Shown here in pieces: positions 1,587-18,523 of a stretch of DNA of 64,000 nucleotides; position 1 is the stretch's first letter, and every line of letters begins with the position of its first letter. The notes under the pieces are model-generated. The model was given only the letters and a program-made list of their open reading frames with translations, did no database searches and was not told the DNA's origin. The stretch is from positions 327,002-391,001 of the forward strand of contig CAWKCZ010000002.1 in NCBI GenBank assembly GCA_963848285.1. The letters are read 5' to 3'. Source of the DNA: an uncultured delta proteobacterium (GTDB lineage: Bacteria > Desulfobacterota > Binatia > Binatales > Binataceae). A program made the translations under genes and the position numbers.

Positions 1587-3794
1587 TTAGTGCGATGAAG
1601 GGTCGGGGTCGAATCCGTTCTTTTGTTGATCTGGAATTTCTGCTGGTTCCGCTGTCGGCGCCGTCGGCGATTCTTCGAGTGGCGCCACGGTTTCCTGCTC
1701 CGCATCGGCAATTTCTTCGCGATCGAGCAGCGCCGACATCTCATCGAGGTGCGCGCGGATTTTCATCGCCAGGTCGCGATTCATCCCTTTCACCTGCGCG
1801 ATGTCCTCGACCGTCGCGTCGCGGATGCGCCGCAGGCTGCCGAAATGGCGCAGCAGCGCGCGCCGCTTCACCGGACCGATACCCTCGATATCGTCGATGG
1901 CCGAGCGCAACCGCGCGCGCTTGCGCAATTCGCGGTTGTAGGTGATCGCGAAGCGATGCGCCTCGTCGCGGATGCGCACCAGCAGGAACAGCGCGGTGGA
2001 ATTTTTCGGCAGCACGATAGGGTCCTTGCGATTGGGCAGGAACACGCGCTCCTCGGATTTCACCACCGTCTCCTCGAGGCCATCGTTCAGGACGTGCTGC
2101 TTGGCGAGCGAGACCACATCGAGCTGGTCGAGCAGATTGAACTCGCTGCAGCACCTCGATCGCGACGTTGAGCTGACCCTTGCCGCCGTCGATGACCCAC
2201 AGGTCGGGAAATTCGTTTTCCGCAACCGCGCGCGTGAGGCGCCGCTTCAGCACCTCGTACATGCTCGCGAAATCGTCCTGGCCCTCGAAGCTGCGAATCC
2301 GGTAGCGCCGATAGAGGTCCTTGCGCGGCTCACCTTCATCGAAGGTGACCTGCGAGCCGACCACCATCGTGCCCTGCAGATTCGAAATGTCGTAGCACTC
2401 CATGCGCTTGGGCGTGTTCTTCAGATGCAGCTTGGTGCGAAGATCGTCGAGCATCTTCTCGCGCGTGACCTCGTTGTCGCGGCGCGAGGCGAAACTCTGA
2501 CGCGCATTCTCGATCGCCATTTCGAGCAGGCGCAGCTTGTCGCCGCGCTGCGGCACGAGGAACTCGACTTTCTTTTCGCGCTTCTCGGTGAGCAGCTCGG
2601 CGCGCACCTCGGCGTCCTCGAGCGCGACCGGCACGATGACCTCGTCGGGAATGTTGCGCGCGCCCGAGTAATACTGCGTGAGCAAATCGGCGAGCACGTC
2701 CTGGTCGGCGAATTCGAGGTCCTGGAAATCCCAGCTATGGGTGCTGGTCAGCTTGCCGCCGCGCACCATCAGCACGATCGCCTCGATGAATCCGCCCTCG
2801 CGATAGAGCCCGAAGACATCCTGATCGATTCCCCAATGATGCAGCACGGTCTGGCGCTCGACGGTCTTTTCGATCGCGCGAACGCGATCGCGCATGCGCG
2901 CCGCGTCTTCGAATTCGAGGCGGTCGGCATGCGCCTTCATCTGCTCGCGCATCTCGCGCAAGCAGCTCCAGGTTCTTGCCTTCGAGCAGCATCGTCGCAG
3001 CGTGCAGATGCTGCCCATACTCGTCGCGATCGACCGGCAGACAACACGGCCCGAGGCATCGCTTGATCTGATATTCGAGGCACGGGCGCGCGCGATTCTT
3101 GAATACCGCATCGGAACAGGTGCGGAGCGGGAAAACCTTGCGGATGACATCGATGGTTTCGCGCAGGCCATCCGCGGAGCCGAACGGACCGAAATATTTG
3201 CCGCCGTCCTTGATGATCTTGCGGGTCACCATGATGCGGGGCCACGCATGATTGGTGACCTTGGCGCTCAGGTAGGATTTGTCGTCTTTGAGGCGGATGT
3301 TGTAGCGCGGCTTGTACTGCTTGATGAGGTTGTTTTCGAGGATCAGCGCTTCTTTCTCACTGCGCGTCACCAGGGTGTCGAAGTCGCGCACCCGCCGCAT
3401 CAGGAAGCGCACCTGGAAGCGCTCGTCGCCGCCGTCGCGGAAATAGGCGCGCACGCGCGAGCGCAGCGACTTCGCCTTGCCCGACGTAGAGGACCTTGCC
3501 GCGCTTGTCCTTTAGAAGGTAGACGCCCGGCTCGGGCGGAATCGCATCGAGCTTGCGATCGATCTCGTCGGAGGAATCTCGGCTCCGGAGGTTTTTCGTC
3601 GGACCGCCGTGGCTCGCTCGGGATAACTCAACCAACGAGTCGAAGCGCGGACCCTCCGGAGTGGACGGGTCCGCCTCTGCCGAAATGGGCTCACGGCGCG
3701 GTCGGCTTTTCTCCTCCGCGATCAGAAAACCCTTGCCGGCGGCGCGGGTCATCATCTGCGCGCTGCGGCTGTTATTTGGCGTGAGCTTCGGCAT
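1587..3794 (-). CDS. uvrC: Excinuclease ABC subunit C, split over at least 4 frames; start uncertain
   Basis: GIY-YIG N-terminus PGVYLLKDKRGKVLYVG (ORF 3357..3794). LILENNLIKQYKPRYNIRLKDDKSYL and CLEYQIKRCLGPC (ORF 2735..3454). UVR and middle domain in ORF 1741..3171. C-terminal HhH segment IEGIGPVKRRALLRHFGSLRRIRDATVEDIAQVKGM (ORF 1587..2225). Confidence 0.9.
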
Positions 3795-3892: not shown

Positions 3893-4808
3893 ATGGGCAA
3901 GCTGGATGGAAAAGTTGCGGTTATAACCGGCGCTGCGAGCGGGATGGGACGCGCGACGGCGATCCGTTTTGCGCAGGAAGGCGCCGCAGTCGTCGTCGCG
4001 GACCTGAACTCGCAGGGCGGCGAAATGGTGGTATCGGAAATCGCCGCGGCGAAGGGACGCGCGGTTTTTCAGCGCACCGATGTGATCAGCGAGGACGACA
4101 TCAAGGCGCGTCATCAATCGCGCGGTGAAGGAATTCGGCCGCCTCGACATCACCTACAACAACGCCGGCGTCGGCGGCGCGACCGGAAGAATCGAGGACA
4201 TCAAATCCGAGGATTGGGACAAGACGTTCCACATCCTGACGCGCGCGGTGTTCCTCGGCATCAAGTATTCGGTCGCGCCGATGCGCAAGGCTGGCGGCGG
4301 CTCGATCATCTCGACCTCGTCGGTCGCGGGACTGCGCGGGGTCGCTGGATTGTGCGCCTACAGCGCGGCGAAAGCCGCGGTCATCAGCATCACCGAATCG
4401 GCGGCGATCGATCTCGGCCACGATCGCATCCGGGTCAACTGCATCTGCCCCGGCGGCATCGTGACGCCGCTGACGTATCGCGGGATGCCGGGCGGCGAGG
4501 AAGCCGCGGTGAAAGACATGGCGCGGATGCAGCCGATTCCGCGCGCGGGCAAGCCCGAGGATATCGCGGCGATGGCGTTGTTTCTCGCCAGCGACGACGC
4601 GGAATGGATTACCGGGACCGCGATGATCGTCGACGGCGGCATGGCGACCGGCAACTCGCGCATGAACCCAGTTCGGCAGCGGATTTTCCGGGCCGTCCTT
4701 CGAGCGCCGGCAACGCTAGCGAACGAAATACCATCGAGAGCCGGAGGACTCATGTCTTCCGGCTCTCGATTCTCACTAGTGCTGCATCTGCTTGATGTCG
4801 TCGAGTAG
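3893..4808 (+). CDS. Short-chain dehydrogenase/reductase (SDR), one frame change near 4100; true stop possibly earlier (~4717)
   Basis: KVAVITGAASGMGRATA is the TGxxxGxG motif (ORF 3893..4795). NNAG and STSSVAG...YSAAKAA (YxxxK) are in ORF 4125..4808. The last ~40 codons overlap convergent bcp and may be read-through. Confidence 0.8.
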
Positions 4809-5234
4809 TACCTTCTCGTGCCCCTGCGGATTCACCTTCTCATAGACCTTGCGCACGACGCCCTTGGGATCGATGACGAATGACGTACGGTCCCAGTATT
4901 TGTTGCCCTTGAACTCGCTCTGCCCCACCCCTGCGGCGCCTAGCAACTCGGCCTTCGGGTCCGCGAGCAGATCGATGGTGAAGCTGAACTTGTTGCAAAA
5001 GTTCTTATGCGAATCGACGTCATCCGCGCTCACGCCGAGCACCTTGATGCCGGCCGCATCGAAGTCCGATTTGGTCGCGGTGAACGACTTCCCCTGGATG
5101 GTGCATCCGGGCGTGTCGTCCTTGGGATAGACGTAGACCACCAGCCACTTGCCGGCGAAATCGCCGAGCTTCATTTCCTTGCCGTCCTGATTCTTCAGCG
5201 CAAAATTGGGAAAAGGTTTTCCTGTTTCCAGCAT
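4776..5234 (-). CDS. bcp: Peroxiredoxin, Bcp/PrxQ type
   Basis: Internal Met of ORF 4776..5342: MLETGKPFPNFALKNQDGKEMKLGDFAGKWLVVYVYPKDDTPGCTIQ, containing the PxxxTxxC peroxidatic-Cys motif. Confidence 0.85.
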   Translation of the reverse strand: MLETGKPFPNFALKNQDGKEMKLGDFAGKWLVVYVYPKDDTPGCTIQGKSFTATKSDFDAAGIKVLGVSADDVDSHKNFCNKFSFTIDLLADPKAELLGAAGVGQSEFKGNKYWDRTSFVIDPKGVVRKVYEKVNPQGHEKVLLDDIKQMQH

Positions 5235-5317: not shown

Positions 5318-5461
5318 TCAGCCAGTGTGAGTCGAAATCCACCAGGTGTTGCCGAAGCTATCCTTCACGCCAAAAACGTCGCACACGAAGTCCGGCAGAT
5401 CGAGGTTCCCGTAGATGTAAGGTCGAACACTGCCTTTGCCATGACGAATGTGTTTGCTCAT
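5318..5461 (-). pseudogene. VOC-family remnant (N-terminal ~30 aa fused to C-terminal ~15 aa)
   Basis: MSKHIRHGKGSVRPYIYGNLDLPDFVCDVFG is joined directly to VKDSFGNTWWISTHTG. It has both ends of a VOC module but lacks the ~80-90 aa core. Confidence 0.55.
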
Positions 5462-5471
5462 ATGCCAATCC

Positions 5472-6846
5472 TCATTCGGCCGCTTCGAGGGGTTGCGTCG
5501 ACGCCACAACTTCCTCGACTTTCGCGGAAGTCGCGCGCGATGCGATCACGGTCGAGAGCATCACGATCACCGCGGCCAGCAAGTACGGCGCGCCCGGCAG
5601 ATGCCGGTCGCGATTCGGTCCGATGAAGCTGGCGAAAGTGGTCGTGAAAATGATCGGCCCGATCATGAACGCGATCCCACGGATGCTGCTCAGCGCGCCC
5701 TGCAACTGGCCCTGCTCGGTCTCTTTTACGCGGCGCGTCATCAGGCTCTGCATCGGAGGATTCGACAGGCCGCCCAATCCGCCGATCGGAATGCCGCTCC
5801 AGAACAGCAGGCCCGTCGGCGCGAGGCCATAAATGAAAAATCCCGCGACGTTGAACCACATCCCGCCGAGCATCACGCGCCGATCGCCGAACTTCGCGAC
5901 CAGCGGCTGCACCATGCCCGCGCCGACCAGCGCCGAGCATACGCCGACGGTGGCGATCGCGAGGCCGATCGTGCGCTCGTTCCAGCCGTAGCGATACATC
6001 GCGTACAGGACGAAGGTCGTCGGCAGCGCCTCATGCGCGATGCTGCTGAGAAAGTTCACCGTCGACAGCCCGAACAGCTCCGCATGCGAGCGCAGCAGCT
6101 TGATCGATCCCATCGGGTTGGCGCGCTGCCAACTGAACGCCTCGCGCCGATCGCGCGGCAGCGATTCCGGCAGCACGAACAGCCCGTACATCGCGTTGAG
6201 CAGGCTGAGTCCCGCGGCGACCCAGAACGGCAAGCGCGGATCGATGTTGCCGAGCACGCCGCCCATCGCGGGGCCGAGCACGAAGCCGAGTCCGAACGCC
6301 GCGCTGATCATGCCATAGCCGGCGGCGCGCTTCTCGGGCGGCGCGACATCGGCAATGTAGGCGCTCGCGGTCGAGAAGCTCGCCGCGGTGATGCCCGAAA
6401 TCACGCGGCCGACGAACAGCCACCAGACGGTCGGCGCCAGCGCCATCACGATGTAATCGCGCGCCGAGGCCGAAGTTGGACAGCAGGATGACCGGGCGGC
6501 GTCCGAAGCGATCGGAGAGCGCGCCCAGCACCGGCGAGAAACAGAACTGCATCGCCGCCCACACCGTCGCGAACAGGCCGACGTATTCGGCGGCGCGCGC
6601 GGTGTTGCCGTGCATGAAGTCCTCGACCAGCTTCGGCAGCACCGGCACGATCATGCCGAGCGCGAGCATATCGAGCACCACGGTGATGAAGATGAAGGCG
6701 AGCGCGGCGCGCCGCGGCTCCGCTGCGCAGTCGCCGTTCAGCTCATCGCTCTCATGCCGCACGCTACCTTCTTTCGCGTCTGACGCTTCGGTCGCGAGGC
6801 TCTTCTCTTCGTCGCGAGGTTCGACATGCTGCGCCGCTTCGTTCAT
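5472..6846 (-). CDS. MFS transporter, TetA/TCR-like efflux pump, one frame change near 6470
   Basis: N-terminus in ORF 6031..6846 carries MFS motif A (LGALSDRFGRRPVILLS). Twelve-TM-like remainder in ORF 5472..6449 (WWLFVGRVISGITAASFSTASAYIADV...). Confidence 0.8.
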
Positions 6847-7222
6847 CGCCGACGGCAGTGCGCCCGCCGAGCCGCTTCGGCGCCGACATCAGGTAGCCGT
6901 CCTTCAAAATCCCCGCGACCTCATCCCAATTGACTTTGTAGTCGAGGCGCACGCCGACCCATCCTTTGGGCCCCATGTAGGGCGGAATGAAAAAGCGCTT
7001 TCGCATCCGAGTTGACGAGAATCTCCTGCACCATCGGCGGCGCCTTCACCCATACCGCGACGTGCCCGCTGCCATGATGATTGTTGTCGGTCATCGCGAA
7101 CATGCTGCCGCCGGTGACGCGAAAGGTGCACTCGCCCCACGCCTCTTTTTCGAATGCCTCGGGCAGCGCGAGGCAGACCTCGCGCAGCCGCTTCAGCGCG
7201 GATTCGAATCGTCATACATTCG
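6764..7222 (-). CDS. MmcQ/YjbR-family protein, about 2 frame changes; ends approximate
   Basis: Reconstructed FESALKRLREVCLALPEAFEKEAWGECTFRVTGGSMFAMTDNNHHGSGHVAVWVKAPPMVQEILVNSDAK (ORF 6921..7103 plus upstream frame). Then RFFIPPYMGPKGWVGVRLDYKVNWDEVAGILKDGYLMSAPKRL (ORF 6764..7006). Confidence 0.6.
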
Positions 7223-7244
7223 TGGATGCGCCATCGAAATGTCC

Positions 7245-8292
7245 TCAGACTCGCTCGCCTTCGATGATACTCAGCCGCGCGGGCGTCGGAACAATCCTCG
7301 TAAGCTTGAACCCCGCGGCTGCGTAGAAGCGAGCGGAACTCCGCCTCGGAGCGCTGCCGGCCGCCGGTGCAGACCAGCATATTGACGTCGTTGGCCGCGG
7401 CGCCGCGCGCACTATCCGATTGATCGACGCGTGCGGGATAAACGCCCTCGGCAATGAGCAGTTTGCCGTGCGGCGGCATCGCGCGATGGATGCTGCGCAA
7501 AATCGCGGTCGCGCGTTCGTCGTTCCAGTCGTGGATGACGTGCTTGATGATGTAGGCGTCGGCGCCTGCCGGCACTTCCTTGAAAAAGTCCCCCGCGATC
7601 GCCTCGCAGCGCGACTGCAAGCCGGCCTCGGCGATTTTCGCGCGCGCCTTTTCTGCTGCATGCGGCAGGTCGAAAACGATTCCGTGCAGATGCGGATTGG
7701 CCTTCAGAATCCCGATCAGCAAAGAGCCGTTGCCGCCCCCGACATCGACGAGCTTACCGAAATGGCGAAAAATCATACGATGCGGCGATCGCGGCCGCGG
7801 TCATCGGCGCGAAGGTCGCCATCGCTTCGTCGAAGACTTCTCGCCTGCTCCGGATCATCGCCGCGATCGAACGCGAACGCGTCGGCATCGGGCGAATTGC
7901 GGCGAAACGCCGGCTCTCCGGTTTGCACGCAATACTCGAGTTCCTTCCACGAATCCTGGATCGCCGACGCCCGGCGAACAATTGCACCGAGGATCGCATC
8001 GAGCCGGGCACGCCGGTGCGCAGCAACTCGCCCATCGGCGTCAGCGCGAAGGTGCCGTTCTCGCGCTCCTCGAAAACGCCGACGCTCGCGAGCAGCCGCA
8101 TCACGCGATTGAGCGACGGCCATGGGTGCCGGTCGCTTCGCGAGGTCGTCGTAGCTGACGCGGGCCATCTTTCAGGCAGATCGGCGACGCCCAGCTTCGC
8201 GGCCAGCGCGAGCGCGCGCGAAAAATAGTGCCCGATCGCCGATTCGATAGAGCGCGAGCCCAGGCGGCTCGCCGATCGGTTGCGATATTTTG
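7245..8292 (-). CDS. Class I SAM-dependent O-methyltransferase (Methyltransf_2 / plant-type OMT family with N-terminal dimerisation domain), at least 3 frame changes
   Basis: LVDVGGGNGSL, AYIIKHVIHDWNDERA and GKLLIAEGV are in ORF 6904..7776. N-terminal wHTH part RVMRLLASVGVFEERENGTFALTPMGELL is in ORF 7754..8104. C-terminus AAGFKLTRIVPTPARLSIIEGERV is in ORF 7245..7661. Confidence 0.8.
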
Positions 8293-8700
8293 CGTTTCCA
8301 TAATGTCACTCACTTCGCGGCCTTGATAGGTCGCGATCCACCAGGTGTTGCCCGAAGTATCCTTCACGCCGCCGACGCGATCGCCCCAGGTCTCGTTCGA
8401 CCGGCTCGCGCACCGATGTGGCGCCGAGGCTCGAGCGCTTTCTTGTAGGTCGCATCGACATCGGGAACGTAAAGGTAGATCGCGGCGGCCATCGAGGAAT
8501 CGGTGAAGTAGCCGTTGCCGAGCAGCAGATGCGCGTCGCCGATTTTCGCCTCGGCGTGAAAGTTCCCGCGCCGTCGGGCGTCGGCGGATGCGTAACCTCG
8601 GCGCCGAAAGCGTTCTTGAGAAATCGAGCAGCTCGAGTTTCCCGAAGAGGTACGGCGTAATGGCGGTGAAGCCTTCCTGGATGTATTTTGTGTTGCTCAT
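8293..8700 (-). CDS. VOC-family protein, module A (frameshifted; 3' end uncertain)
   Basis: MSNTKYIQEGFTAITPYLFGKLELLDF and GDRVGGVKDTSGNTWWIATY (ORF 8101..8700). FLKNAFGAEVTHPPTPDGAGTF and LGATSVREPVERD (ORF 8306..8794). Confidence 0.65.
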
Positions 8701-8709
8701 CGGAGCTCC

Positions 8710-9190
8710 TCAGCTCGGGTTGACCATCGCCTTGAAACGTTTCTGCATTTCCTCGGGCGAAACCTCTTCGATCCGCATCGAAAGATCCCAGCAATGCCCC
8801 GACGGATCGCGCACCTGCGCGTTGCGGTCGCCATAGAACTGATCCTCGGGCTCGCGCAGCGAGGTCGCACCGGCCGCGAGCGCGCGCTTATACACCTCGT
8901 CGACATTTTCGACATAAAGATGGATCGAGACCGGCGAGCGCTTGCCGCCGAGCGATCTTGGGCGACACGAAACCCATTTCGGGAAATTCGTCGGCCAGCA
9001 TGATAGCTGCCGCCGTTGATTTTCAGTTCCGCGTGGCCGATGCGGCCGTCCGGGCTGTTTGAAGCGCATCGTTTCGGTCGCGCCGAAGACGTTTTTGTAG
9101 AAATCGATCATCTCGGCGGCGTTGCTGACGATCAGATACGGCGTCATCGCGGCACGCCCCGTCGGGAATGGGTTTGATTTTCGCTGGCAT
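8710..9190 (-). CDS. VOC-family protein, module B (frameshifted)
   Basis: ATG at 9190 is preceded by GGAGGA. AMTPYLIVSNAAEMIDFYKNVFGATETMRFKQP and VSIHLYVENVDEVYKRALAAGATSLREPEDQFYGDRNAQVRDPSGHCWDLS (ORF 8710..9402). Confidence 0.7.
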
Positions 9191-9211
9191 GATTTCCTCC
9201 TTGCGCTAGAT

Positions 9212-9632
9212 TTAGCTGCGCGAATGCGGCCGCGGCGCGTTTGCGAATTTCTTCGAGCGACAAATCTTCCTTGATGCGTCGCGATTTGCCAGATGTTGCC
9301 GAACGGATCTTTCACCGTGGCGCGCCGATCGCCATAGAACATGTCCGGCGGCTCCTCGATCGATCGTCGCGCCCGCTTCGAGCGCGCGCCGATACGCCGC
9401 ATCGGTGTCTTCGAGATAGAGATAGAGAAACGCTCGGCATCGCCTCGCGCACGCCGGCCTCGCTCACCATCACGATCGAATCGCCGATGCGAATTTCGGA
9501 TGGCCCATCGTCGCGATAAGTCGCCGGTCGCGCCGAAAGCATGCTTGAGAAACTCGACCAGCTTCGCGCATCGCTGACAAACAGTCGCGGCGTGATGCTA
9601 TGCCAGCCCTCGGGAACTGCTTTGACCGCCAT
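9212..9632 (-). CDS. VOC-family protein, module C (frameshifted; 3' end uncertain)
   Basis: MAVKAVPEGWHSITPRLFVSDA (ORF 9312..9632). C-terminus IEEPPDMFYGDRRATVKDPFGNIWQIATHQ (upstream part of ORF 8710..9402). Confidence 0.65.
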
Positions 9633-9647
9633 CGTCCTTCTCCATCG

Positions 9648-10100
9648 TCACTGCGACGCGCTTTTGAGCGGCGTCGCGATGTACCAGATGTGGCCGAACG
9701 GATCCTGCACCCCGCCGCATCGATCGCCCCACTCCTTGTCTGCCATCGGATCGACGACCTTCGATCCCGAATCGAGCGCGCGCTTGAACGCTGCGTCGGC
9801 GTCCGCGACGTAGATGTAGAGATGCAGCGGCGAGCCGCCGAAGTCGCGCGGCGTACCGGCGAATCCCTTCGCGCGATATTCCGCGGCATGCGGCGCGGTC
9901 GCGTCATCCAGCATCACGTGGGTCTCGCCGATCGCCATCTGGATGTGGCTCGGCTTGCCGTTCGGCTGCGTCACGCGATGCACCTCTCGTGCGCCGAAAA
10001 TCTTCTGGTACAACTCGAACGCCGCCTGCGGATCATCGTTGAACATGAACGGCATGATCGATCCGGGGCGCTGGCGAGGTTCGATCTCGCGCGGCGGCAT
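9648..10100 (-). CDS. VOC-family protein, module D (intact ORF; start may be Met at 10055)
   Basis: Uninterrupted 150-aa ORF: FMFNDDPQAAFELYQKIFGAREVHRV...HIQMAIGETHVML...LHLYIYVADADAAFKRALDSGSKVVDPMADKEWGDRCGGVQDPFGHIWYIATP. Confidence 0.85.
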   Translation of the reverse strand: MPPREIEPRQRPGSIMPFMFNDDPQAAFELYQKIFGAREVHRVTQPNGKPSHIQMAIGETHVMLDDATAPHAAEYRAKGFAGTPRDFGGSPLHLYIYVADADAAFKRALDSGSKVVDPMADKEWGDRCGGVQDPFGHIWYIATPLKSASQ

Positions 10101-10485
10101 CTTCGGCCGGAATCGTGAAATCGCGCAGATGCGTCGCGATGTACCATACGTTGCCGAACGGATCCTTCACGCCCGCATAGCGATCGCCATAGCCCGCGTC
10201 GACCGGCTCGTCGATGGAGATCGCGCCGGCCTCGAGCGCGCGCTGGTAGGTCGCATCGGTGTCGGGGACGTATGAGATGCAGCGCGGGCGGCATCGGCTG
10301 ATACGGCCCGTGCGCCTCGCCCATCGCGATGATCGAATCGCCGACGCGAATCTTCGCGTGATGGACACGCGCCTTCGGGGTCCTGATGGCGCTCAGACCT
10401 CCTCGGCGCCGAACGCGCGCTTGAGGAAATCGATCACCGGCGGCGCGCTCTTCGGATGCAGATACGGCGTGATGCTGTGCAGCTC
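10033..10485 (-). CDS. VOC-family module E (frameshifted); N-terminus in frame with the C-terminus of module F
   Basis: ELHSITPYLHPKSAPPVIDFLKRAFGAEEV (ORF 10393..10647). YVPDTDATYQRALEAGAISIDEPVDAGYGDRYAGVKDPFGNVWYIATH (ORF 10033..10368). Confidence 0.6.
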
Positions 10486-10921
10486 CTGCGGCGGCGGTTC
10501 CGCGTCCGCGCGATGGGTCGCGATGTACCAGTGATTGCCGAACGGGTCTTTCACGCTCGCCTCGCGATCGCCGTAGTCCTGGTCCGTCGGCTCATGAAGC
10601 GAGCGTCGCGCCCGCCTTGAGCGCGCGCGCGTAGGTCGCGTCGGCATCTTTCACGAACAGCCAAATCGCGGTCGGATTGGGCTGATACTTGTCGATCGCG
10701 TCGGCGACTTCGATCATCGAGTCTTCGATCTTCAGTTGCGCATGCGCGATTTCGTCGCCGCGCGGCACCCGGAAAATCTCCTCGGCGCCGAACGCATCGC
10801 GGAGGAACTCGATCAGCTTCGATGGCGCCGTTACCTGCAGATACGGCGTGATGCTGTGATAGCCCTCGGGCGCGCCCGCGGGCTCGGTCGCGAGGTTTCT
10901 TCGTGCGGGAGCGCTCTGCAT
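10486..10921 (-). CDS. VOC-family module F (one frame change)
   Basis: MQSAPARRNLATEPAGAPEGYHSITPYLQVTAPSKLIEFLRDAFGAEEIFRV...AHAQLKIEDSMIEV...WLFVKDADATYARALKAGA (ORF 10592..10921). HEPTDQDYGDREASVKDPFGNHWYIATH (ORF 10393..10647). Confidence 0.7.
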
Positions 10922-11622
10922 CTCGCTTCATCCACTCTTCCGCGCGACGCGTCATTTCATCCGGCGTCAGGTCTTCCTTGTGCGTCGAGACGATCCACAT
11001 ATGCCCGAAGGGATCCTGCAAGCGGCCGCTGCGGTCGCCGTAGAACTGATCGGCGATCGGGAAAATCACTTTCGCGCCCGCCGCGATGGCGCTTCTCCGC
11101 GAACGCGTCGACATCCTCGACATAGAGACCGATCGGAACCGTCGATCCGCCGAGCGACTGCGGGCTGCGATTGTAGTTGCCCGTGCTCCGGCGCGATATC
11201 GATCGGCGAATCGCCAATCTGGATCTGCGCATGAATGATGTTGCCGCTCGGATCGTCCAGCCGCATCAGCTCGGTCGCGCCGAAAGCCTGCTTTGTAGAA
11301 TTCGATCGCGCGCGGCGCATCGCGCACCACCAGGCAGGCATTCGCAGTATGAAAACCCGCCGGAATGTAGCTCGCCTTCTTCGCTGCACGGCGCCAGCGG
11401 CGTCACTCGCGCGACGAGATCCTTCTTGAGCCGCGCCTTGAAATCCTCGCTGGGCAGATCGCGCAGCTCCGACGCGATGCGCAGAATCGCGGCGATGCGG
11501 GAATTGACCCGCGGCAGCTTGCTTTCGCGATCGCTCATGATCTTATCGACCGCCTTGTCGAGCTGCTGCGCGAGCGGCGCGGGTTTGGCGATGCGCTTGC
11601 TCTTGTTGCTCGCTCGTTTCAT
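10922..11622 (-). CDS. VOC-family module G with a ~85-aa non-VOC N-terminal extension (frameshifted; 3' end uncertain); candidate anti-sigma partner
   Basis: The ATG at 11622 overlaps the sigma-factor stop (ATGA). N-terminus MKRASNKSKRIAKPAPLAQQLDKAVDKIMSDRESKLPRVNSRIAAILRIASELRDLPSEDFKARLKKDL (ORF 11266..11622). VOC part: FGATELMRLDDPSGNIIHAQIQIGDSPIDIAPEHG (ORF 11066..11389), GGSTVPIGLYVEDVDAFAEK (ORF 10957..11232) and AIAAGAKVIFPIADQFYGDRSGRLQDPFGHMWIVSTHKEDLTPDEM (ORF 10551..11330). Confidence 0.6.
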
Positions 11623-12185
11623 CGCTCACCCACCATCGTGCGCAGACTTTGCAGGCCGCGAAACTGAAGCTGCTTGATGGCGCCCTCGCTACGCCCGATG
11701 TCTTTGGCAATCTCGGCGATACTTTTCTGCTGTGCGAAACGCATGGTGATTACGCGGCGCTGATCGTCGGGAAGTTTCTCCACCAATTTGAACAGCCGCG
11801 CGCGATGCTCGACTTCCGCGAGATCGGCATCGTCTGGACGGATCCGTACTCGTGGAGCTCGCGCAGCTTGATCGCCTCGAGCTGGGCCGCGCGCTTGCCG
11901 CGATCGGCGATCGCATTGGCCGCGATGCGAAACAGCCACGCCGCAAACGGCGCGCCGCGCCATTCGAAGCGCGAAAGATTTTTCAGCGCGCTATGGAAAA
12001 CATCGGCGGTCAGATCCTGCGCCTGATCGCGATCGTGAACCCGCCGCGCGATGAAGGCATAGACGCGTTCGAAGTTGTTCTTCGTAGAGCTGGGCGAAGC
12101 AGGCGGGATCGCGCTGCGCGGCCTCGATCAAGCCGCGCTCCGGCGCATCCTTGGTTCGGCGCTTCAATGCAGGTTTCCCAGCCAC
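11619..12185 (-). CDS. ECF-type sigma-70 family RNA polymerase sigma factor (about 2 frame changes)
   Basis: Region 2: GLIEAAQRDPACFAQLYEE (ORF 11991..12185). My translation of the adjacent frame gives NFERVYAFIARRVHDRDQAQDLTADVFHSALKNLSRFEWRGAPFA. Region 4: LPDDQRRVITMRFAQQKSIAEIAKDIGRSEGAIKQLQFRGLQSLR (ORF 11619..11963). Confidence 0.85.
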
Positions 12186-12225
12186 CTTCGCCTCTAACTA
12201 TATAAACCGCCGGCGCGCGAAAAGG

Positions 12226-12254
12226 TTACGCGGCTTCGAAACCAGAGGTTTTCA
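12226..12254 (-). promoter_or_regulatory. Candidate ECF-type promoter upstream of the sigma gene (TGAAAAC-N17-CGTAA on the minus strand)
   Basis: Reverse complement of 12226..12254 reads TGAAAACctctggtttcgaagccgCGTAA. It lies ~40 nt upstream of the GTG start at 12185 and resembles AAC / CGT type ECF promoters. This is a single occurrence, with spacing one nt longer than the SigW-type consensus I remember. Confidence 0.25.
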
Positions 12255-12373: not shown

Positions 12374-13102
12374 ATGCGCCGCATGACCGTCATCGTTTTC
12401 GCGCGCGAGCCGATCCCGGGCCAAACCAAGACGCGGCTCATCCCGGCGATCGGCAAGGACTATGCGGCCGCACTCGCCGATGCGTTCAATCGCGATGCCC
12501 TCGCGAAGGCCAAACGCCTCGCGCCCGCAGAATTGGTGATCGCAGGTAGCGCTCCCGGAGGCGCCAAGCGCAGCCGTTATTTCAAAACCCTCGCGCACGA
12601 ATTCGGCGCGTGGGTCTTCGAGCAGGGCACCGGACATCTCGGCGCGCGCATGGCTGCCGCGATGCGTCCGTTCACCAATGCCGGCGGCGCTTTGCTGATT
12701 GGCACCGATACGCCCTCATTGCCGATGAAGCTGCTGACCAAGAGCGCCGACCTCTTCGAGAAGCATCCGATTGTCATCGCGCCGACCCTCGACGGCGGCT
12801 ACTACCTCGTCGCTATGCGCGGGAAGCTGGCCGACATCTTCAAGCCGATGCCTTGGGGCGGTCCGGAGGTGCTCGCGATCACGTTGCAGCGTCTGCGCGA
12901 TGCGGGAGAGCCCTACTGCCTCGGGCCATGGTGGTACGACGTCGATCGGCCGATCGACTTGCAGTTTCTCATCTCGCATTTGAAGAATCGGGTAAGCGCC
13001 TTCGGTGGCCAGGCGATGGCACTCGGATCGCCGCACCCATGCCCTGCGACCGCCGCTTTTTTGAAACGCCTCGAAAAACAAACGCCGCGTCGAGTCGCTT
13101 GA
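12374..13102 (+). CDS. DUF2064 / TIGR04282-like glycosyltransferase (arsenosugar-associated family)
   Basis: Intact 242-aa ORF: VIVFAREPIPGQTKTRLIPAIG...GALLIGTDTPSLP...APTLDGGYYLVAM...PWGGPEVLAITLQRL, the typical DUF2064 pattern. Confidence 0.75.
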   Translation: MRRMTVIVFAREPIPGQTKTRLIPAIGKDYAAALADAFNRDALAKAKRLAPAELVIAGSAPGGAKRSRYFKTLAHEFGAWVFEQGTGHLGARMAAAMRPFTNAGGALLIGTDTPSLPMKLLTKSADLFEKHPIVIAPTLDGGYYLVAMRGKLADIFKPMPWGGPEVLAITLQRLRDAGEPYCLGPWWYDVDRPIDLQFLISHLKNRVSAFGGQAMALGSPHPCPATAAFLKRLEKQTPRRVA

Positions 13103-13781
13103 AGCTGTCGGTCATCGTCCCGATGTTGAATGAGGCCGCTGCGATTAGCGGCGACCCTCGAAGCGATCCGTACCGGCGCCCGCGAAGCGGAAATAATCGT
13201 AGTCGACGGCGGCAGCACCGACGCCAGCGTCGATGTGGCGCGGCCGCTATGCGATGTGCTCATCGAATCCTCGCGCGGGCGCGCGCTACAGATGAATACC
13301 GGCGCCGCGCGCGCCTCAGGTGACGTGCTGGTCTTCGTGCATGCCGACACGATTGTGCCGCTGACCTTCGGGCGCGATATCGAAACCGCGCTCGCAGAAC
13401 TCGCAGTCGTAGGCGGCCGCTTCGATGTTAGCCTCGACGACAATCATCCTCTGTGCGTGCTGATTGGCGCGCTGATCAGCCTTCGTTCGCGCATCAGCCG
13501 CACCGGTACGGGAGATCAGGCGATTTTCGTACGGAAGCATACCTTCGAGGCTCTCGGCGGATTTCCCGATATGCCGATTTGCGAGGACCTCGATTTCGCG
13601 CGCCGGATGAAACGCGCCGGCCGCGTCGCATGCCTGCGCAGCCAGCGTGATTACCTCGGCGCGGCGATGGCGCAAGGGCGGCATCATGCGCACCGTGCTG
13701 CGGATGTGGACGATTCGATTGTTGTATCTGGCGGGCGTTTCGCCGGTGCGCCTCGCGCGCATGTACTCCGACGTTCGATGA
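13099..13781 (+). CDS. GT2-type glycosyltransferase, TIGR04283-like (about 2 frame changes)
   Basis: TTG at 13099 overlaps the upstream stop. KLSVIVPMLNEAAAI (frame of ORF 12610..13323). EIIVVDGGSTDASV, RGRALQMNTGAARASGDVLVFVHADT and TGDQAIFVRKHTFEALGGFPDMPICEDLDFARRMKRAGR (ORF 13130..14074). The third frame gives VITSARRWRKGGIMRTVLRMW, ending at TGA 13779..13781. Confidence 0.75.
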
Positions 13782-13783
13782 TC

Positions 13784-14734
13784 TCAGGCGAGCGCGCCGG
13801 AGCAACTCGAACCCGCGCCCGCCGTACATCCGAAGCAATGCGAGCCGGTTGCGATGCGCGCGCCGCTCAACTCGCCCAGATCGTTGATATCGAAAATCGT
13901 CAGCGCGCGACCGTCGTCCGTGGACAACGGCATCCCGAGCATCTGATTGAAATCGCAATCGTAAAGCGTGCCCTCGTAGCCGACGCTCACCAGGTCGCGG
14001 CACATAACGGTCGAAACCGTCGTAGGATTGAAATGATTCACCAACAGCGCCATGTAGTCTCGATCGCTCCCTGAATGCCGAAGCTGATCGGCGAAGCGCT
14101 TGATCGGCATGTTGGTAATGGTGAGCAGATGGTTGAACTCGATGCCGAAACCGTCGCGCAGCTCCTGACGATAGCGCGCTTCCAGTTCGGCCTGCGCGGG
14201 CGGCAGAAACGCGAACCGACTGGATTGTAAACGAGGTCAAGAACCAATTCGCTCCCCGCCATCCCATAACCAAGTCGATTCAAGACGCCGGAGCGCCTCG
14301 ATGCTTTTCTCGAAGACTCCCCGCCGCGTTGTTTGTCCACATTCTCGGCCGTGTAGCACGGCAGTGAGCAAACCAAGTTAGCGTGATGCTCTCGATAAAA
14401 TGCAGGCAGCCAATCCATACCCGGCTGAAAGATGACTGTGAGATTGCATCGTACGATGACATCACGTCCCAGCCGGCGCGCCGACTCGACCAGGAATCCA
14501 AAATGTTCGATTCAACTCTGGCGCGCCGCCGGTGATGTCGACGATTTCGATCGACGGGCTATGCGCGAGCAACTCGATGACTCGCTCGGCCACCCGCGAA
14601 TCCATCTTCTCGGTGCGCGCCGGACCCGCATCGACGTGGCAATGATGGCACGCCTGGTTGCACACCTTGCCGACATTGACCTGCAGCGTGCGCGGCGCGA
14701 CGCGCGTCAGCGGCGCGAGACCATGACGCTGCAA
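13784..14734 (-). CDS. arsS: Arsenosugar biosynthesis radical SAM protein ArsS-like (at least 3 frame changes)
   Basis: LQVNVGKVCNQACHHCHVDAGP holds the CxxxCxxC cluster motif at 14639..14662 (ORF 14462..14734). PCYTAENVDKQRG (ORF 14038..14418). C-terminus VSVGYEGTLYDCDFNQMLGMP...IATGSHCFGCTAGAGSSCSGALA (ORF 13784..14110). Confidence 0.8.
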
Positions 14735-14760
14735 CTCGGCGTCAAATGCGCCGGGACGTG

Positions 14761-15276
14761 CTATTTCCGAAGCGCCGCCATTAGCTCAAGCTCTTCGCGG
14801 AAATCGCGCCAGGTCGCAAGAGCGCTACTTCTGGCGCGCCAGACCAGCGGCTTCTTGCCCTGCATCATTTCCATCATGCCGGTCAACTCGATTCGCGAGG
14901 GCGTAACCAGCAGAGGCCGAAATCAGGCGACTGATGCCCGCCGGGCCAGAATTGCGCCAATTCGTAGTCAAAGACCTTCCCTTCCCAGACGCGCTTTTTC
15001 TCCGCCGGCATCGTCGATGAAACGCGCGGTGCCGGTCACCGTAAGATGAACGAAGTCGGGGCCGGCCTGGTAGAAGAGTTCGACTTTGGGATTTTTCGCG
15101 ATATGCTTGCCCTTGGCGGAATTGCCGGCCGGTCGCGATCCACAGCTTCGTCGCCTTCGAATGCCGGATGCACCACGCGCACCTTGGGCTGATCGCCCGA
15201 CCGCCGTCGCGAGGTAGGCCCAGGTGGCTTTTTTCGCAGCCTCGTGAAACTTCTGCAGGGTTTCAGCGTCGCTCAT
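14761..15276 (-). CDS. Pyridoxamine 5'-phosphate oxidase-fold protein (general stress protein 26-like), frameshifted
   Basis: MSDAETLQKFHEAAKKATWAYLATA and NPKVELFYQAGPDFVHLTVTGTARFIDD (ORF 14968..15276). Reconstructed tail ...WEGKVFDYELAQFWPGG...RIELTGMMEMMQGKKPLVWRA ends at TAG 14761. Confidence 0.5.
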
Positions 15277-15422
15277 CTCAAAATGGTCTCCTTATGGACT
15301 GGCGGCGACATTAGCGAAATTGTTCGACCGGAATCCAATCCTGTGGATATGCTGCGCCGAATAGCGGTTTGACAGTCACTACGACGGATCATTAGCCTCT
15401 CGCCTTAACGCAATTCGTAACG

Positions 15423-16057
15423 ATGGAACGTACTGAACGCCGCGCCCAGGTCCTGCGCCACGCGAAGCGAATTTTCGCGCGCAAGGGCTATCATCGCACC
15501 AATGTCGCCGACATCATTGCGCGCGCCGGCATCGCGCGCGGGACTTTCTACCTCTACTTCCAGAACAAAAGGACCTTTTCGAGGAATTGCTGGAGCAGGT
15601 GGTCTCCGAGCTCCGACGCGGATTTTGCGCCTCAAAGTAGGCACCGGGAAGACGAACCCGGTCGATCAATTGCGCGACAACCTGCGGCGCGTGGTCGGCT
15701 TCGTGCTCGCATGAACGCGAGCTCACCGACATCCTGCTTAATCATTCGGTCGGATTCGATCGCGAGCTGGATGCGAAAATTCGCGAGTTCTACGATCGCA
15801 TCGCGCAGATGATCCAGCGCTCGCTCGATTTGGGAATCGAGATGAAGCTGGTGCGCAAATGCGATACCCGCGCGGTCTCGTACTGCATTCTCGGAGGAAT
15901 CAAGGAGGTCGTCGGGGTGCTGTCCCGCACCCGTCCGCGCGATACCGAAACCTTGGTGCAGGAGATCCTCGATTTCGGGTTGCGCGGAGTCGCGCGCCCC
16001 GAACTTCTCGCAGAGATCGATCGCAATTCACAAAACGCCACGCGATGCAAAAAATGA
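15423..16057 (+). CDS. TetR/AcrR-family transcriptional regulator (about 2 frame changes)
   Basis: RAQVLRHAKRIFARKGYHRTNVADIIARAGIARGTFYLYFQNK (ORF 15423..15812) is the TetR N-terminal HTH. C-terminal ligand domain in ORF 15809..16057. Confidence 0.8.
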
Positions 16058-16084
16058 GAACCATCGGCGGGCAAGCTTTTTTTA

Positions 16085-16873
16085 TTGCCCATAACTAGAA
16101 TGACATGTCAGTTCATCGAGCAAAATCTTCTCCGCAATGGCCGCCCGCAAATGCGTCGCGCCGCATTCTATGATCTCGACGGGACCCTGGTCGATCTCAA
16201 CCTCGTCCACATCACCTTGTTCGTGCTCGCCAACCTCGGCGAATGGAGCAACCGCCTGAGCTATCTCGCGGCTTTCGCCGCGCGCGCGCCGAGACTCTAC
16301 CTCGCGGAGCAGCAGGACCGGCGCAAGCTCAACATCCTGATGTTCGAGGCGTTCAAGGGAATCTCGCGCGACCGCCTGGTCGAGCTGGGACGCGAATACT
16401 GCGAGCGCGTGCTCATCGGCCATCTCTATCCCAAGGGCATCGAACTCATCGAAGCGAACCGCCGCGCCGGCCTGGAGCCGGTGCTGGTAACCGGCTCGCC
16501 CGATTGGGTAGTTGCGCCGCTCGCGCGAGCATCTCAACATCGCGGATTTTTCCGCCAACCGGATGGCGATCAGCCGCGGCCGCGCGACCGGACGGCTGCT
16601 CGAACCGATCATGGCGACGGCGGAGAAAGCGACCTGGTGCGAGCAGTACGCCAGCCGAGCACGGCATGAAGCTCGCCGATTGTTGGGGCTATCGCGGATT
16701 CGCACTACGACTTGCCGTTTCTCACCGCGCTCGGGCATCCGGTCGCGGTGAATCCTGACAAGCGGCTGCGCGCAACTGCGATGAGCCGGCAATGGCCGAT
16801 CATCCATCTGGAAAAGAATCGCAACGGCAGCAGCATCATCGCCGACAACGTGCGGCGTCTGGTTGAGGCCTAA
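16085..16873 (+). CDS. HAD-IB family hydrolase (SerB-like phosphatase fold), about 2 frame changes; likely start at Met 16151
   Basis: MRRAAFYDLDGTLV carries the DxDxT motif (ORF 16085..16669). LVTGSPDWVVAPLA. Later frames give ADSHYDLPFLTALGHPVAVNPDKRLRA, the HAD-IB motif IV region. Confidence 0.7.
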
Positions 16874-16882
16874 GGGGAATCG

Positions 16883-18523
16883 ATGGCTCGTCCGGAAGCC
16901 AAACTAAAAGAACTAAAAACCGCCGAACTGAAGCATGAGGTCGGCGCGCGCAAGGATTTGGTCATCACGACCAATCGGCGCTCCGAGCGCCGCCTCATCG
17001 CGTATGGCGACGATTTCCTGTTCGAGAAGCTGCCGGTCGGCACCCGCGTCATTTATCCGCCGCCGCCGCTGGAGCGCTCGCCGATCCCGACCAGGCGATT
17101 CGCTACGCCCTGCTCCATCCGGAAAATGCCGATCCGCTGTTCGCGCAGCTCAATCCCAACATGCGCGTGACGATCGCGATCGACGACATCAGCCTGCCGC
17201 TGCCGCCGATGCGCCGTCCCGACATTCGCGAGCGCCTGCTCAACCAGGTGATGCAGACGCTGGCCGACTACGGCGTTGACGATGTGCATCTGATCATCGC
17301 GACGTCGCTGCATCGGCGCATGACCGAGGCCGAGATTCGCCGCATGGTGGGCGAAAAAGCCTTCAAACAGTTTTGGCCGGATCGCCTCTACAACTTCGAC
17401 GCGGAAAATCGCGCCGAGCTCACGATGATGGGCAAGACCGATCACGGCGAGGAAGTGTGGCTCTCCAAGCGCGCCGCCGACTCCGACCTGGTCATCTATC
17501 TCAACATCAACCTGGTGCCGATGGACGGCGGGCATAAGTCGGTCGCGGTCGGTCTCTCGCCCTATGCGAGCCTGCGTCATCATCACAATCCGACCACGCT
17601 GCGCGATTCGCATTCGTACATGGACCCCAATCATTCGGCGCTGCATCGCTCCGCCGATCGGATGGGACGCGTAATCAACTCGCAGCTCAATGTGTTCACG
17701 CTCGAGACCGCCGTCAACAACAACATGTACGGCGGGATGCTCGACTTCCTGCATAAGAACGAAGACCGCTTCACCGACTGGGATCACGTGCGGCTGAAGG
17801 GATTTCAGTGGACGATGCGCAATCTGTCGGACGATCTGCGCCGCCAGATGCTGCGCAACTACGCCGCGCCCTACGGCATGACGGGGATCTGGGCGGGCGA
17901 GACCGAAGCGGTCCATCGCAAGGCGCTGGCGAAAGTTTTTCAGCAATACGCGGTGCCGGTGAAGGGTCAGGCCGACATTCTAATCGTCGGCGTGCCGTTC
18001 ATTTGCCCCTACAACGTCAACTCGATCATGAATCCGATCCTCGTGCAGTGCACCGGGCTCGGCTACCTGTTCAACATGTATCGCGGCAAGCCGCTGGTGC
18101 GCGAAGGCGGCACGATCATCGTCACGCCATCCGCTGCGCGACGAGTTTCACCCCGAGCATCATCCGAGCTACATCGAATTTTTCCATCGATGCCTCGCGC
18201 AAACCACCGACGCGGTCGAGCTCGCCGATCAGTTCGAGCATGAGTTCGCGCACAATCCGACTTACATCCACATGTATCGCTACGGCAATGCCTATCACGG
18301 AGTGCATCCCTTCTACATGTGGTATTGGGGCGAGCCCGCGCGTCAGCACTGCGGACGCGTGATCGCCGCCGGATGCGAGGAGCCCGAGGTTGCCGCGCGC
18401 CTCGGATGGGAAGCTGCCGACAGTCTGGATGAAGCGATCGCGATGGCGACCTCCGAACAAGGCCGCTCCGCGAGCATCACCTACTTGCATCTGCCGCCAC
18501 TGGTAATTGCCGATGTCGAATAG
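16883..18523 (+). CDS. LarA-like (lactate racemase N-terminal domain, DUF2088) protein, about 2 frame changes
   Basis: VTIAIDDISLPLPPMRRPDIRERLLNQVMQTLADYGVDDVHLIIATSLHRRMTEAEIRRMVGE and DLVIYLNINLVPMDGGHKSVAVGL (ORF 17161..18243) match the LarA N-domain pattern. C-terminus in ORF 18272..18523. Confidence 0.65.

Follow-up and report, generated by a model that had tools for sequence, protein, structure and literature searches.

An ECF sigma factor operon with tandem VOC domains and a candidate soluble anti-sigma module in uncultured Binataceae

We analysed a stretch of 64,000 nucleotides (hereafter the window) from an uncultured soil member of the Binataceae (GenBank assembly GCA_963848285.1, contig CAWKCZ010000002.1, positions 327,002 to 391,001 of the forward strand), in which the gene of an extracytoplasmic function (ECF) sigma factor leads a series of genes for VOC-fold proteins. 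An uninterrupted run of minus-strand genes occupies positions 12230 to 5318. It opens with an ECF-type promoter-like motif, CGTAACCTTTT-N12-GTTTAT (12204 to 12230), about 18 nt 5' of the GTG start of the sigma gene (11619 to 12185), whose product has 187 residues once three 1-bp insertions near 12082, 11848 and 11833 are removed and carries the Pfam domains Sigma70_r2, r4 and r4_2. The sigma stop overlaps the start of the next gene in an ATGA at 11622-11619. As judged from intact orthologues, Pfam and an AlphaFold2 (AF2) model, this second gene (9648 to 11622) encodes a single polypeptide, 651 aa long in relatives, which consists of an N-terminal head (11388 to 11622), probably an anti-sigma module, and four VOC domains. 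These are module 1 (10965 to 11360), module 2 (10501 to 10870), module 3 (10114 to 10494) and module 4 (9651 to 10064), the last being the only module with an unbroken frame in the window. Three single-domain genes follow, for module 5 (VOC138, 138 aa, 9211 to 9632), module 6 (VOC158, 158 aa, 8710 to 9190) and module 7 (VOC129, 129 aa, 8310 to 8700), and then come genes for an S-adenosylmethionine (SAM)-dependent aromatic O-methyltransferase (349 aa, 7245 to 8301), a YjbR/MmcQ-family protein (6743 to 7234) and a TetA-like efflux pump of the major facilitator superfamily (MFS; about 427 aa, 5472 to 6755), and a 47-codon remnant of an eighth VOC gene (5318 to 5461). With boundaries mapped from intact relatives, all intergenic gaps in the block are at most 20 nt. 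An earlier note on this DNA, made from the letters alone, had listed the sigma factor, the VOC modules, the three further genes and the remnant in the same order on the minus strand, with the ATGA overlap; all were found where it had placed them, and the eight C-terminal VOC signatures that it quoted read as given in three-frame translation.

Intact relatives keep the order sigma factor (187 aa), head with four VOC domains (648-651 aa), VOC138, VOC158, VOC129, O-methyltransferase (349 aa), YjbR (155-179 aa) and MFS pump (427 aa), followed, as in the window, by a short-chain dehydrogenase/reductase (SDR) gene on the opposite strand and uvrC. The head-VOCx4 orthologues are intact at 648-659 aa in six relatives (loci L001-L005 and L009), and more than 100 such proteins appear in a wider listing. 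The count of seven VOC modules in the earlier note was borne out by tblastn and PF00903, but its treatment of modules 1-4 as separate units was not, as they form one reading frame of 648-659 aa in relatives. Within the window, tblastn with two modules as queries placed VOC-like segments only at 11360-8310, apart from a short match at 5371-5330.

All genes of the block are out of frame in the window, one VOC gene truly has an internal deletion, and a broken 118-aa open reading frame (ORF; 11266-11622) can be found in public protein sets, its source being a contig of 1.16 Mb. These observations would fit a block of decaying pseudogenes with real frameshifts, yet the pattern of the breaks makes such decay highly improbable. 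In an alignment to the relative L001, which is colinear with the window at 84% DNA identity, the 6.8-kb block holds 54 isolated 1-bp insertions, about one per 125 bp, and isolated deletions are very scarce; no more than 11 of these insertions have an identical neighbouring base, and most lie outside homopolymers. The same kind of frame break occurs outside the block, in uvrC (1656-3794), the SDR gene (3893-4716), a TetR gene (15420-16090) and a LarA-like gene (16883-18520). Between the breaks, amino-acid identity to relatives is 85-98%, and removal of the insertions, the frame correction that had been asked for, restored full-length proteins without substitution decay; the single stop left in the corrected four-VOC product, near 10390-10398, is an alignment artefact. 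Because these single-base insertions are scattered at random, also strike genes outside the block and leave 85-98% identity between them, they carry the signature of long-read error and not of gene decay, and we rejected pseudogenisation as their cause. On the evidence of these alignments, the frameshifts are sequence noise rather than functional loss, and the presence of the broken ORF in public protein sets indicates that the errors sit in the deposited assembly. Insertion-type noise of this kind affects the window from position 1 to about 45000, where genes are split into overlapping same-strand ORFs and an ORF-based reading needs frameshift-aware methods. The 47-codon remnant at 5461-5318 is a different case. 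It matches both ends of an intact 127-aa VOC gene that stands right after the pump in locus L091, with about 240 nt gone from the middle; taken alone, it gave no Pfam match. From this comparison, the remnant that the earlier note had recognised is a genuine internal deletion in an eighth VOC gene.

The sigma factor scored 92.8 bits with the NCBIfam superfamily model TIGR02937 (cut-off 42.9), and its 187 residues contain only the sigma2 and sigma4 regions, which places it among the ECF (group 4) sigma factors. Its best NCBIfam model was TIGR02952 (BldN family), at 134.5 bits against a cut-off of 206.45, a score that does not extend to membership of that family; BldN-family ECF sigma factors form ECF121 in the 2021 classification (PMC7826278). 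More than 100 homologues are 73-92% identical to it, those with names being Candidatus Binataceae, and the identity between Binataceae and distant phyla is still 53-68%. The closest solved structure is PDB 6DXO. A link of this entry to the RsbN-BldN complex was dropped, since PMC6101532 gives 6C03 for that complex.

The promoter-like motif CGTAACCTTTT-N12-GTTTAT has one copy in the 64-kb window and is found once 5' of the sigma gene in each of 12 Binataceae loci (L001-L012) whose upstream genes are unrelated. Among the loci listed in the survey described below, 79 of 103 have the relaxed form CGTAAC-N17/18-GTT[TA] within 160 nt 5' of the sigma start, most often at a distance of 13-32 nt, and it is nearly always the sole copy in 8 kb on both strands. 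No sigma-70-like promoter was found inside the block. A conserved motif before the sigma gene, together with the lack of internal sigma-70 promoters, fits an autoregulated ECF promoter, and we regard the motif as a putative one.

The head of the second protein, its first ~75 residues, matched no Pfam family at E <= 0.01, and a profile of 36 heads compared with the PDB retrieved no solved anti-sigma factor at E <= 10. Residues 1-77 in the window contain no Cys or His and hence no zinc motif; with neither a profile match nor an HxxxCxxC, the head falls outside the class I anti-sigma domains (zf-HC2/RskA/ChrR type). Its consensus, LIEQLDxAVxAI..(~10)..LLRIAAELRDLPRxDFKARLKADL, covers about 57 residues. 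Searching 1.84 billion representative proteins with HMMER recovered the head in 120 proteins of 60-640 aa, almost always at residues ~5-62, and a word-index search of proteins with the head as sole query gave no more than 12 short fragments. Pfam analysis of 86 head-bearing proteins identified VOC families in 16-19 and cupins in 8, with no domain in many of the short ones. In the AF2 model, the head consists of three predicted short helices (residues 17-30, 41-52 and 59-70), at a predicted local distance difference test score (pLDDT) of 45-55, joined by low-confidence linkers, and a disordered tether then leads to the first VOC domain. It has no transmembrane segment.

We surveyed genomes, one per species, with a degenerate DNA pattern for LRDLPxxxFKARL and obtained at least 119 loci, to the listed ones of which the following counts refer. 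They come mostly from Acidobacteriota (Terriglobia, Blastocatellia and Thermoanaerobaculia) and Binatia, with a few from Verrucomicrobiia, Methylomirabilota and Eremiobacterota. Upstream sequence sufficed for a test in 105 loci, and in 103 of these a same-strand ORF for an ECF sigma factor stops at the head start, 83 times with an offset of -8 nt and 7 times with one of -4 nt; one of the two loci that lack a coupled sigma is a chance match of the pattern. The payload behind the head is far from constant: in the 119 loci listed, 0, 1, 2, 3, 4 and 6 VOC modules occur in 11, 11, 41, 46, 9 and 1 loci, respectively. Complete head-bearing proteins of ~360 aa without VOC domains carry two cupins instead (L040, L074, L077 and L083) and are likewise coupled to a gene for the same type of sigma factor, and L107 combines the head with two cupins and one VOC domain. 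Since the head keeps company with the sigma factor while its payload changes in number and fold, it shows the pattern of a regulator and not of a tether. The N-terminally extended VOC of the earlier note is not merely the first module of a row: its head is a conserved module coupled to the sigma factor. Its N-terminal position, helical character, solubility and translational coupling to the sigma gene make anti-sigma-like behaviour probable. The relative conservation of head and VOC domains across phyla is uninformative in this survey, as the loci were chosen by a motif within the head.

One locus of the survey, L027, stands apart: counted from the start assigned to the head, its sigma ORF begins at -547 and ends at +74. 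A fusion of sigma factor and head, a wrongly placed start or a frameshift may account for this; a natural fusion, if true, would be informative for the hypothesis that the head binds the sigma factor.

The size of the array varies as well. Sigma relatives at 77-83% identity head a unit of sigma factor, head-VOCx1 and VOC138 only, and other relatives have the sigma factor, head-VOCx4, further VOC genes and a methyltransferase; among the free-standing VOC proteins, VOC138 alone is retained in every Binataceae variant examined. Of the 79 listed loci whose downstream sequence reaches far enough, 62 have arrays of 2 or 3 modules in total, two have 7 and one has 9, and a methyltransferase, YjbR and MFS pump lie downstream in only 8, 4 and 4 of the 79, respectively. 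The largest array among the loci listed, with nine modules, is that of L117 (Binataceae), where a 907-aa ORF with the head and six VOC domains precedes three VOC genes, a methyltransferase, YjbR and an MFS pump. Multi-VOC proteins of this family reach ~1000 aa, with examples of 990-998 aa in metagenomes, and carry no annotation beyond 'VOC family protein' or 'PhnB protein'. Given a two-gene core in most loci and a methyltransferase, YjbR or pump in few, the arrangement in the window is a Binataceae elaboration of a widespread core. The earlier note knew of no described system with so many VOC modules under one ECF sigma factor. The array is common in uncultured Binataceae, although no characterisation of it was found in the literature searched.

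All seven VOC modules passed the PF00903 threshold, with four stretches in the long protein and one in each short one, and none was drawn to an unrelated family. At pairwise identities of 31-61% they are old paralogues, in line with the old expansion proposed from the letters. TioX is the best solved sequence relative of the modules (2e-11), VOC158 included, and also the best single-domain structural match in Foldseek (28% identity, template-modelling score 0.78). An AF2 model of a full-length orthologue shows the four VOC domains at a pLDDT of ~90. Foldseek with the whole 651-aa model returned mostly generic multi-domain VOC enzymes with poor global superposition and was uninformative on the head. 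At5g48480-like Pfam matches and weak PhnB/YjdN matches also occur among the modules. TioX, BlmA, Mrd and TnmS1-3 are described as VOC-fold antibiotic-sequestering proteins (PMC6804068), and the proposed drug-sequestering role of TioX agrees with the likeness to such proteins that the earlier note had suggested.

The O-methyltransferase matched Methyltransf_2 (PF00891, 1e-48) and Dimerisation (PF08100, 6e-13) and, in the PDB, 6C5B (8.5e-85), CalO6, AlpH, DtpM, MmcR (8.5e-61) and CalO1, and by these matches it belongs to the natural-product aromatic O-methyltransferase family. The YjbR protein scored 56.6 bits with PF04237 (cut-off 30.1, E 4e-15), which assigns it to that family, and had no sequence match in the PDB. 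Its C-terminal tail (6743-6860) is poorly conserved, the protein being 155 vs 179 aa long in relatives; in the window the tail shares a frame with the start of the annotated pump ORF (6846), so that the YjbR stop and the pump start are approximate. The pump matched Pfam MFS_1, and its best NCBIfam model, Tet(A/B/C), gave 318 bits against a cut-off of 475. Judged by these scores, it is a TetA-like MFS_1 pump and not a Tet determinant. The identities that the earlier note gave to these three genes were thus upheld.

Many members of the VOC superfamily are enzymes, and the structural neighbours found by Foldseek include glyoxalase I and extradiol dioxygenases. The modules conserve a His, a Gly-Asp-Arg and an Asp-Pro-Phe-Gly-His/Asn-x-Trp motif, and O-methyltransferase and YjbR/MmcQ genes are typical of antibiotic clusters, YjbR/MmcQ being linked to the mitomycin cluster. 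The modules could accordingly be isomerases or ring-cleaving or thiol-dependent lyases, and the block an aromatic catabolic or tailoring pathway or the resistance-and-tailoring end of a natural-product cluster. We consider this quite unlikely. In glyoxalase I of Escherichia coli (GloA) the metal ligands are His5, Glu56, His74 and Glu122. When the eight modules were scored for these ligands, none of the four positions was conserved, the residues being T/N/M/R, A/E/T/G, variable, and Y/I/Q/N/W, in an alignment that is approximate. The structural match of highest identity is TioX, a non-enzymatic binder, and the surrounding 10 kb, in the window as in relatives, are free of biosynthetic core genes, the neighbours being arsenosugar genes, an SDR gene, uvrC and F420 genes. 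The apparent lack of a glyoxalase metal site is consistent with binding proteins of the BlmA/Mrd/TioX type.

On balance, if only slightly, we favour the following interpretation: the block would be an autoregulated ECF sigma operon in which the head is a cytoplasmic anti-sigma domain and the VOC array behind it a sensor, and to which Binataceae have added VOC binders, methylation and efflux. The head would keep the sigma factor inactive, and the VOC (or cupin) domains of the same protein would act as the sensor of a ligand. Once a small compound of aromatic or electrophilic nature is bound, the sigma factor would be set free and would raise transcription of its own operon. In Binataceae the operon would also yield VOC paralogues for the binding (or modification) of compounds of that class, while the O-methyltransferase would methylate the sensed compound and the pump would export it. 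That the target is an electrophile or a genotoxin is a guess.

The earlier note had instead described a sigma-controlled battery of binding or detoxifying proteins, and this description suits the content of VOC proteins, methyltransferase and pump. It can be extended to a plain sigma-dependent, or merely co-transcribed, detoxification operon in which the head is a segment for tethering, oligomerisation or localisation and the sigma factor is controlled in some other way; the head's lack of similarity to known anti-sigma domains and its low-confidence fold speak for such an arrangement. Nevertheless, we hold it to be unlikely: the position of the head and the 4-8-nt overlap with the sigma gene are kept in 103 of the 105 listed loci, across several phyla, the domains behind the head vary in number and in fold, from VOC to cupin, and the methyltransferase and pump are absent from most of the loci listed. 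A single tight, ECF-led unit did emerge from the short gaps, the promoter-like motif and the absence of internal sigma-70 promoters. However, because the unit conserved across phyla is the sigma factor with head-(VOC)n, usually without methyltransferase, YjbR or pump, modules 1-4 are more likely the sensor of an anti-sigma factor than effectors of a battery.

Several points weigh against the anti-sigma interpretation. The binding of the head to the sigma factor is only inferred, and the coupling of the two genes could reflect a co-function other than inhibition. The head has no detectable similarity to any Pfam anti-sigma model or solved structure, and its AF2 confidence is low (pLDDT 45-55). 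The His, Gly-Asp-Arg and Asp-Pro-Phe-Gly-His/Asn-x-Trp motifs that the modules conserve could belong to an active site instead of a site for binding, and the PhnB/TioX/At5g48480-like VOC subfamily is one without a known ligand. In most species of the 79-locus set the pair occurs alone, without methyltransferase or pump. The survey pattern was itself taken from the head, so that the counts from the at least 119 loci are not frequencies.

A broader proposal is that the head defines a new family of soluble ECF anti-sigma factors with tandem VOC or cupin sensors, widespread in Acidobacteriota and Binatia, and that in Binataceae the sensor has been copied into free-standing binders, one module thus both detecting and neutralising the compound. 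To this we give somewhat less than even credence. In the literature searched, which left subscription journals mostly outside, we found no description of an ECF sigma factor paired with a VOC-domain partner, and the text of the 2021 ECF reclassification makes no mention of glyoxalase, VOC or cupin partners (PMC7826278). The same paper states that soluble anti-sigma factors unlike the known ones are probably being missed. The group of this sigma factor may already be numbered in the ECF Hub; no assigned mechanism was found in the literature searched.

ECF sigma factors are among the most abundant signalling devices of bacteria, and many of their groups have no known anti-sigma factor or signal. 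What the present locus offers is a candidate: a short helical head that accompanies one type of sigma factor in several phyla and is joined to ligand-binding domains of the VOC or cupin type. If the proposal is true, the VOC fold would be a signal-input domain for sigma-factor control, and a functional approach, the first of its kind, would open up to the large PhnB/TioX-like branch of VOC proteins, which is abundant in dominant uncultured soil lineages (Acidobacteriota and Binatia). The predicted promoter makes the anti-sigma idea directly testable in a heterologous reporter. Should that idea fail, what is left is an ordinary, uncharacterised stress or detoxification operon.

Beyond the block, a gene for a PrxQ/Bcp-type thiol peroxidase (4776-5234, minus strand) directly follows the VOC remnant; it is found at the same spot in L004 and L005, is absent in L001, and is possibly, though not certainly, transcribed together with the operon. 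An arsenosugar-type set (12374-14779), identified by NCBIfam scores on the L001 orthologues, diverges from the sigma promoter, with a TIGR04282 glycosyltransferase (12374-13102, plus strand), a TIGR04283 glycosyltransferase (13130-~13780, plus strand) and the radical SAM protein ArsS (14779-13787, minus strand). Further away, at 16883-18520 on the plus strand, is an orthologue of the NPN (nickel-pincer cofactor)-dependent hydroxyacid isomerases of the LarAH14/15/16 family; the L001 protein scored 828 bits in NCBIfam, and the copy in the window is 91-98% identical to it.

Compared with known systems, the modules share their VOC fold with TioX, BlmA, Mrd and TnmS1-3, and in the tiancimycin cluster several paralogues function alongside one another, such proteins being associated with transporters (PMC6804068). 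Those proteins, however, have one domain each, are encoded within the biosynthetic clusters of producers and lack a fused, sigma-coupled head, whereas in the present operon four of the seven modules share a single chain and biosynthetic genes are missing from the neighbourhood. A second group comprises the PhnB/YjdN/At5g48480-like proteins, after which homologues of the present protein are named 'PhnB protein' or 'VOC family protein'; members of that group have one or two domains and no known sigma link. KbpA/Rv0577 are two-domain VOC proteins that bind and inhibit a kinase and thus provide a precedent for VOC-fold proteins as regulators. Rv0577 was the top Foldseek match, but at only 18% identity and with a poor overall superposition (root-mean-square deviation ~20 Å), and KbpA was a weak NCBIfam match; their partner is a Ser/Thr kinase and they lack an N-terminal head.

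For the head, the closest structural analogy is RsbN, the class III anti-sigma factor of BldN in Streptomyces (PDB 6C03). The first 91 residues of RsbN form three helices with flexible linkers and have no sequence similarity to other anti-sigma factors (PMC6101532). The present head is likewise predicted, at low confidence, to have three short helices with flexible linkers, and the best NCBIfam model of the present sigma factor is that of the BldN family, though below its cut-off. In contrast, RsbN is membrane-anchored and reported only in Streptomyces, and the present one is a soluble protein found in Acidobacteriota and Binatia; the head profile compared with solved structures gave no sequence similarity to RsbN, and we treat the likeness as an analogy and not as a tested homology. 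In architecture, the closest precedent for the head-VOC protein is the ChrR-RpoE system of Rhodobacter sphaeroides, taken as an analogy rather than a demonstrated homology. In ChrR, a zinc anti-sigma domain of class I is joined to a cupin sensor at the C-terminus. In both systems a soluble partner directly follows the ECF sigma factor and consists of a small helical N-terminal head and then a ligand-binding domain of beta-barrel type. The present head differs in having no zinc motif and three AF2 helices instead of four, and its usual sensor would be a tandem VOC array. Some members of the present family nevertheless carry two cupins behind the head, a layout like that of ChrR but without the zinc motif.

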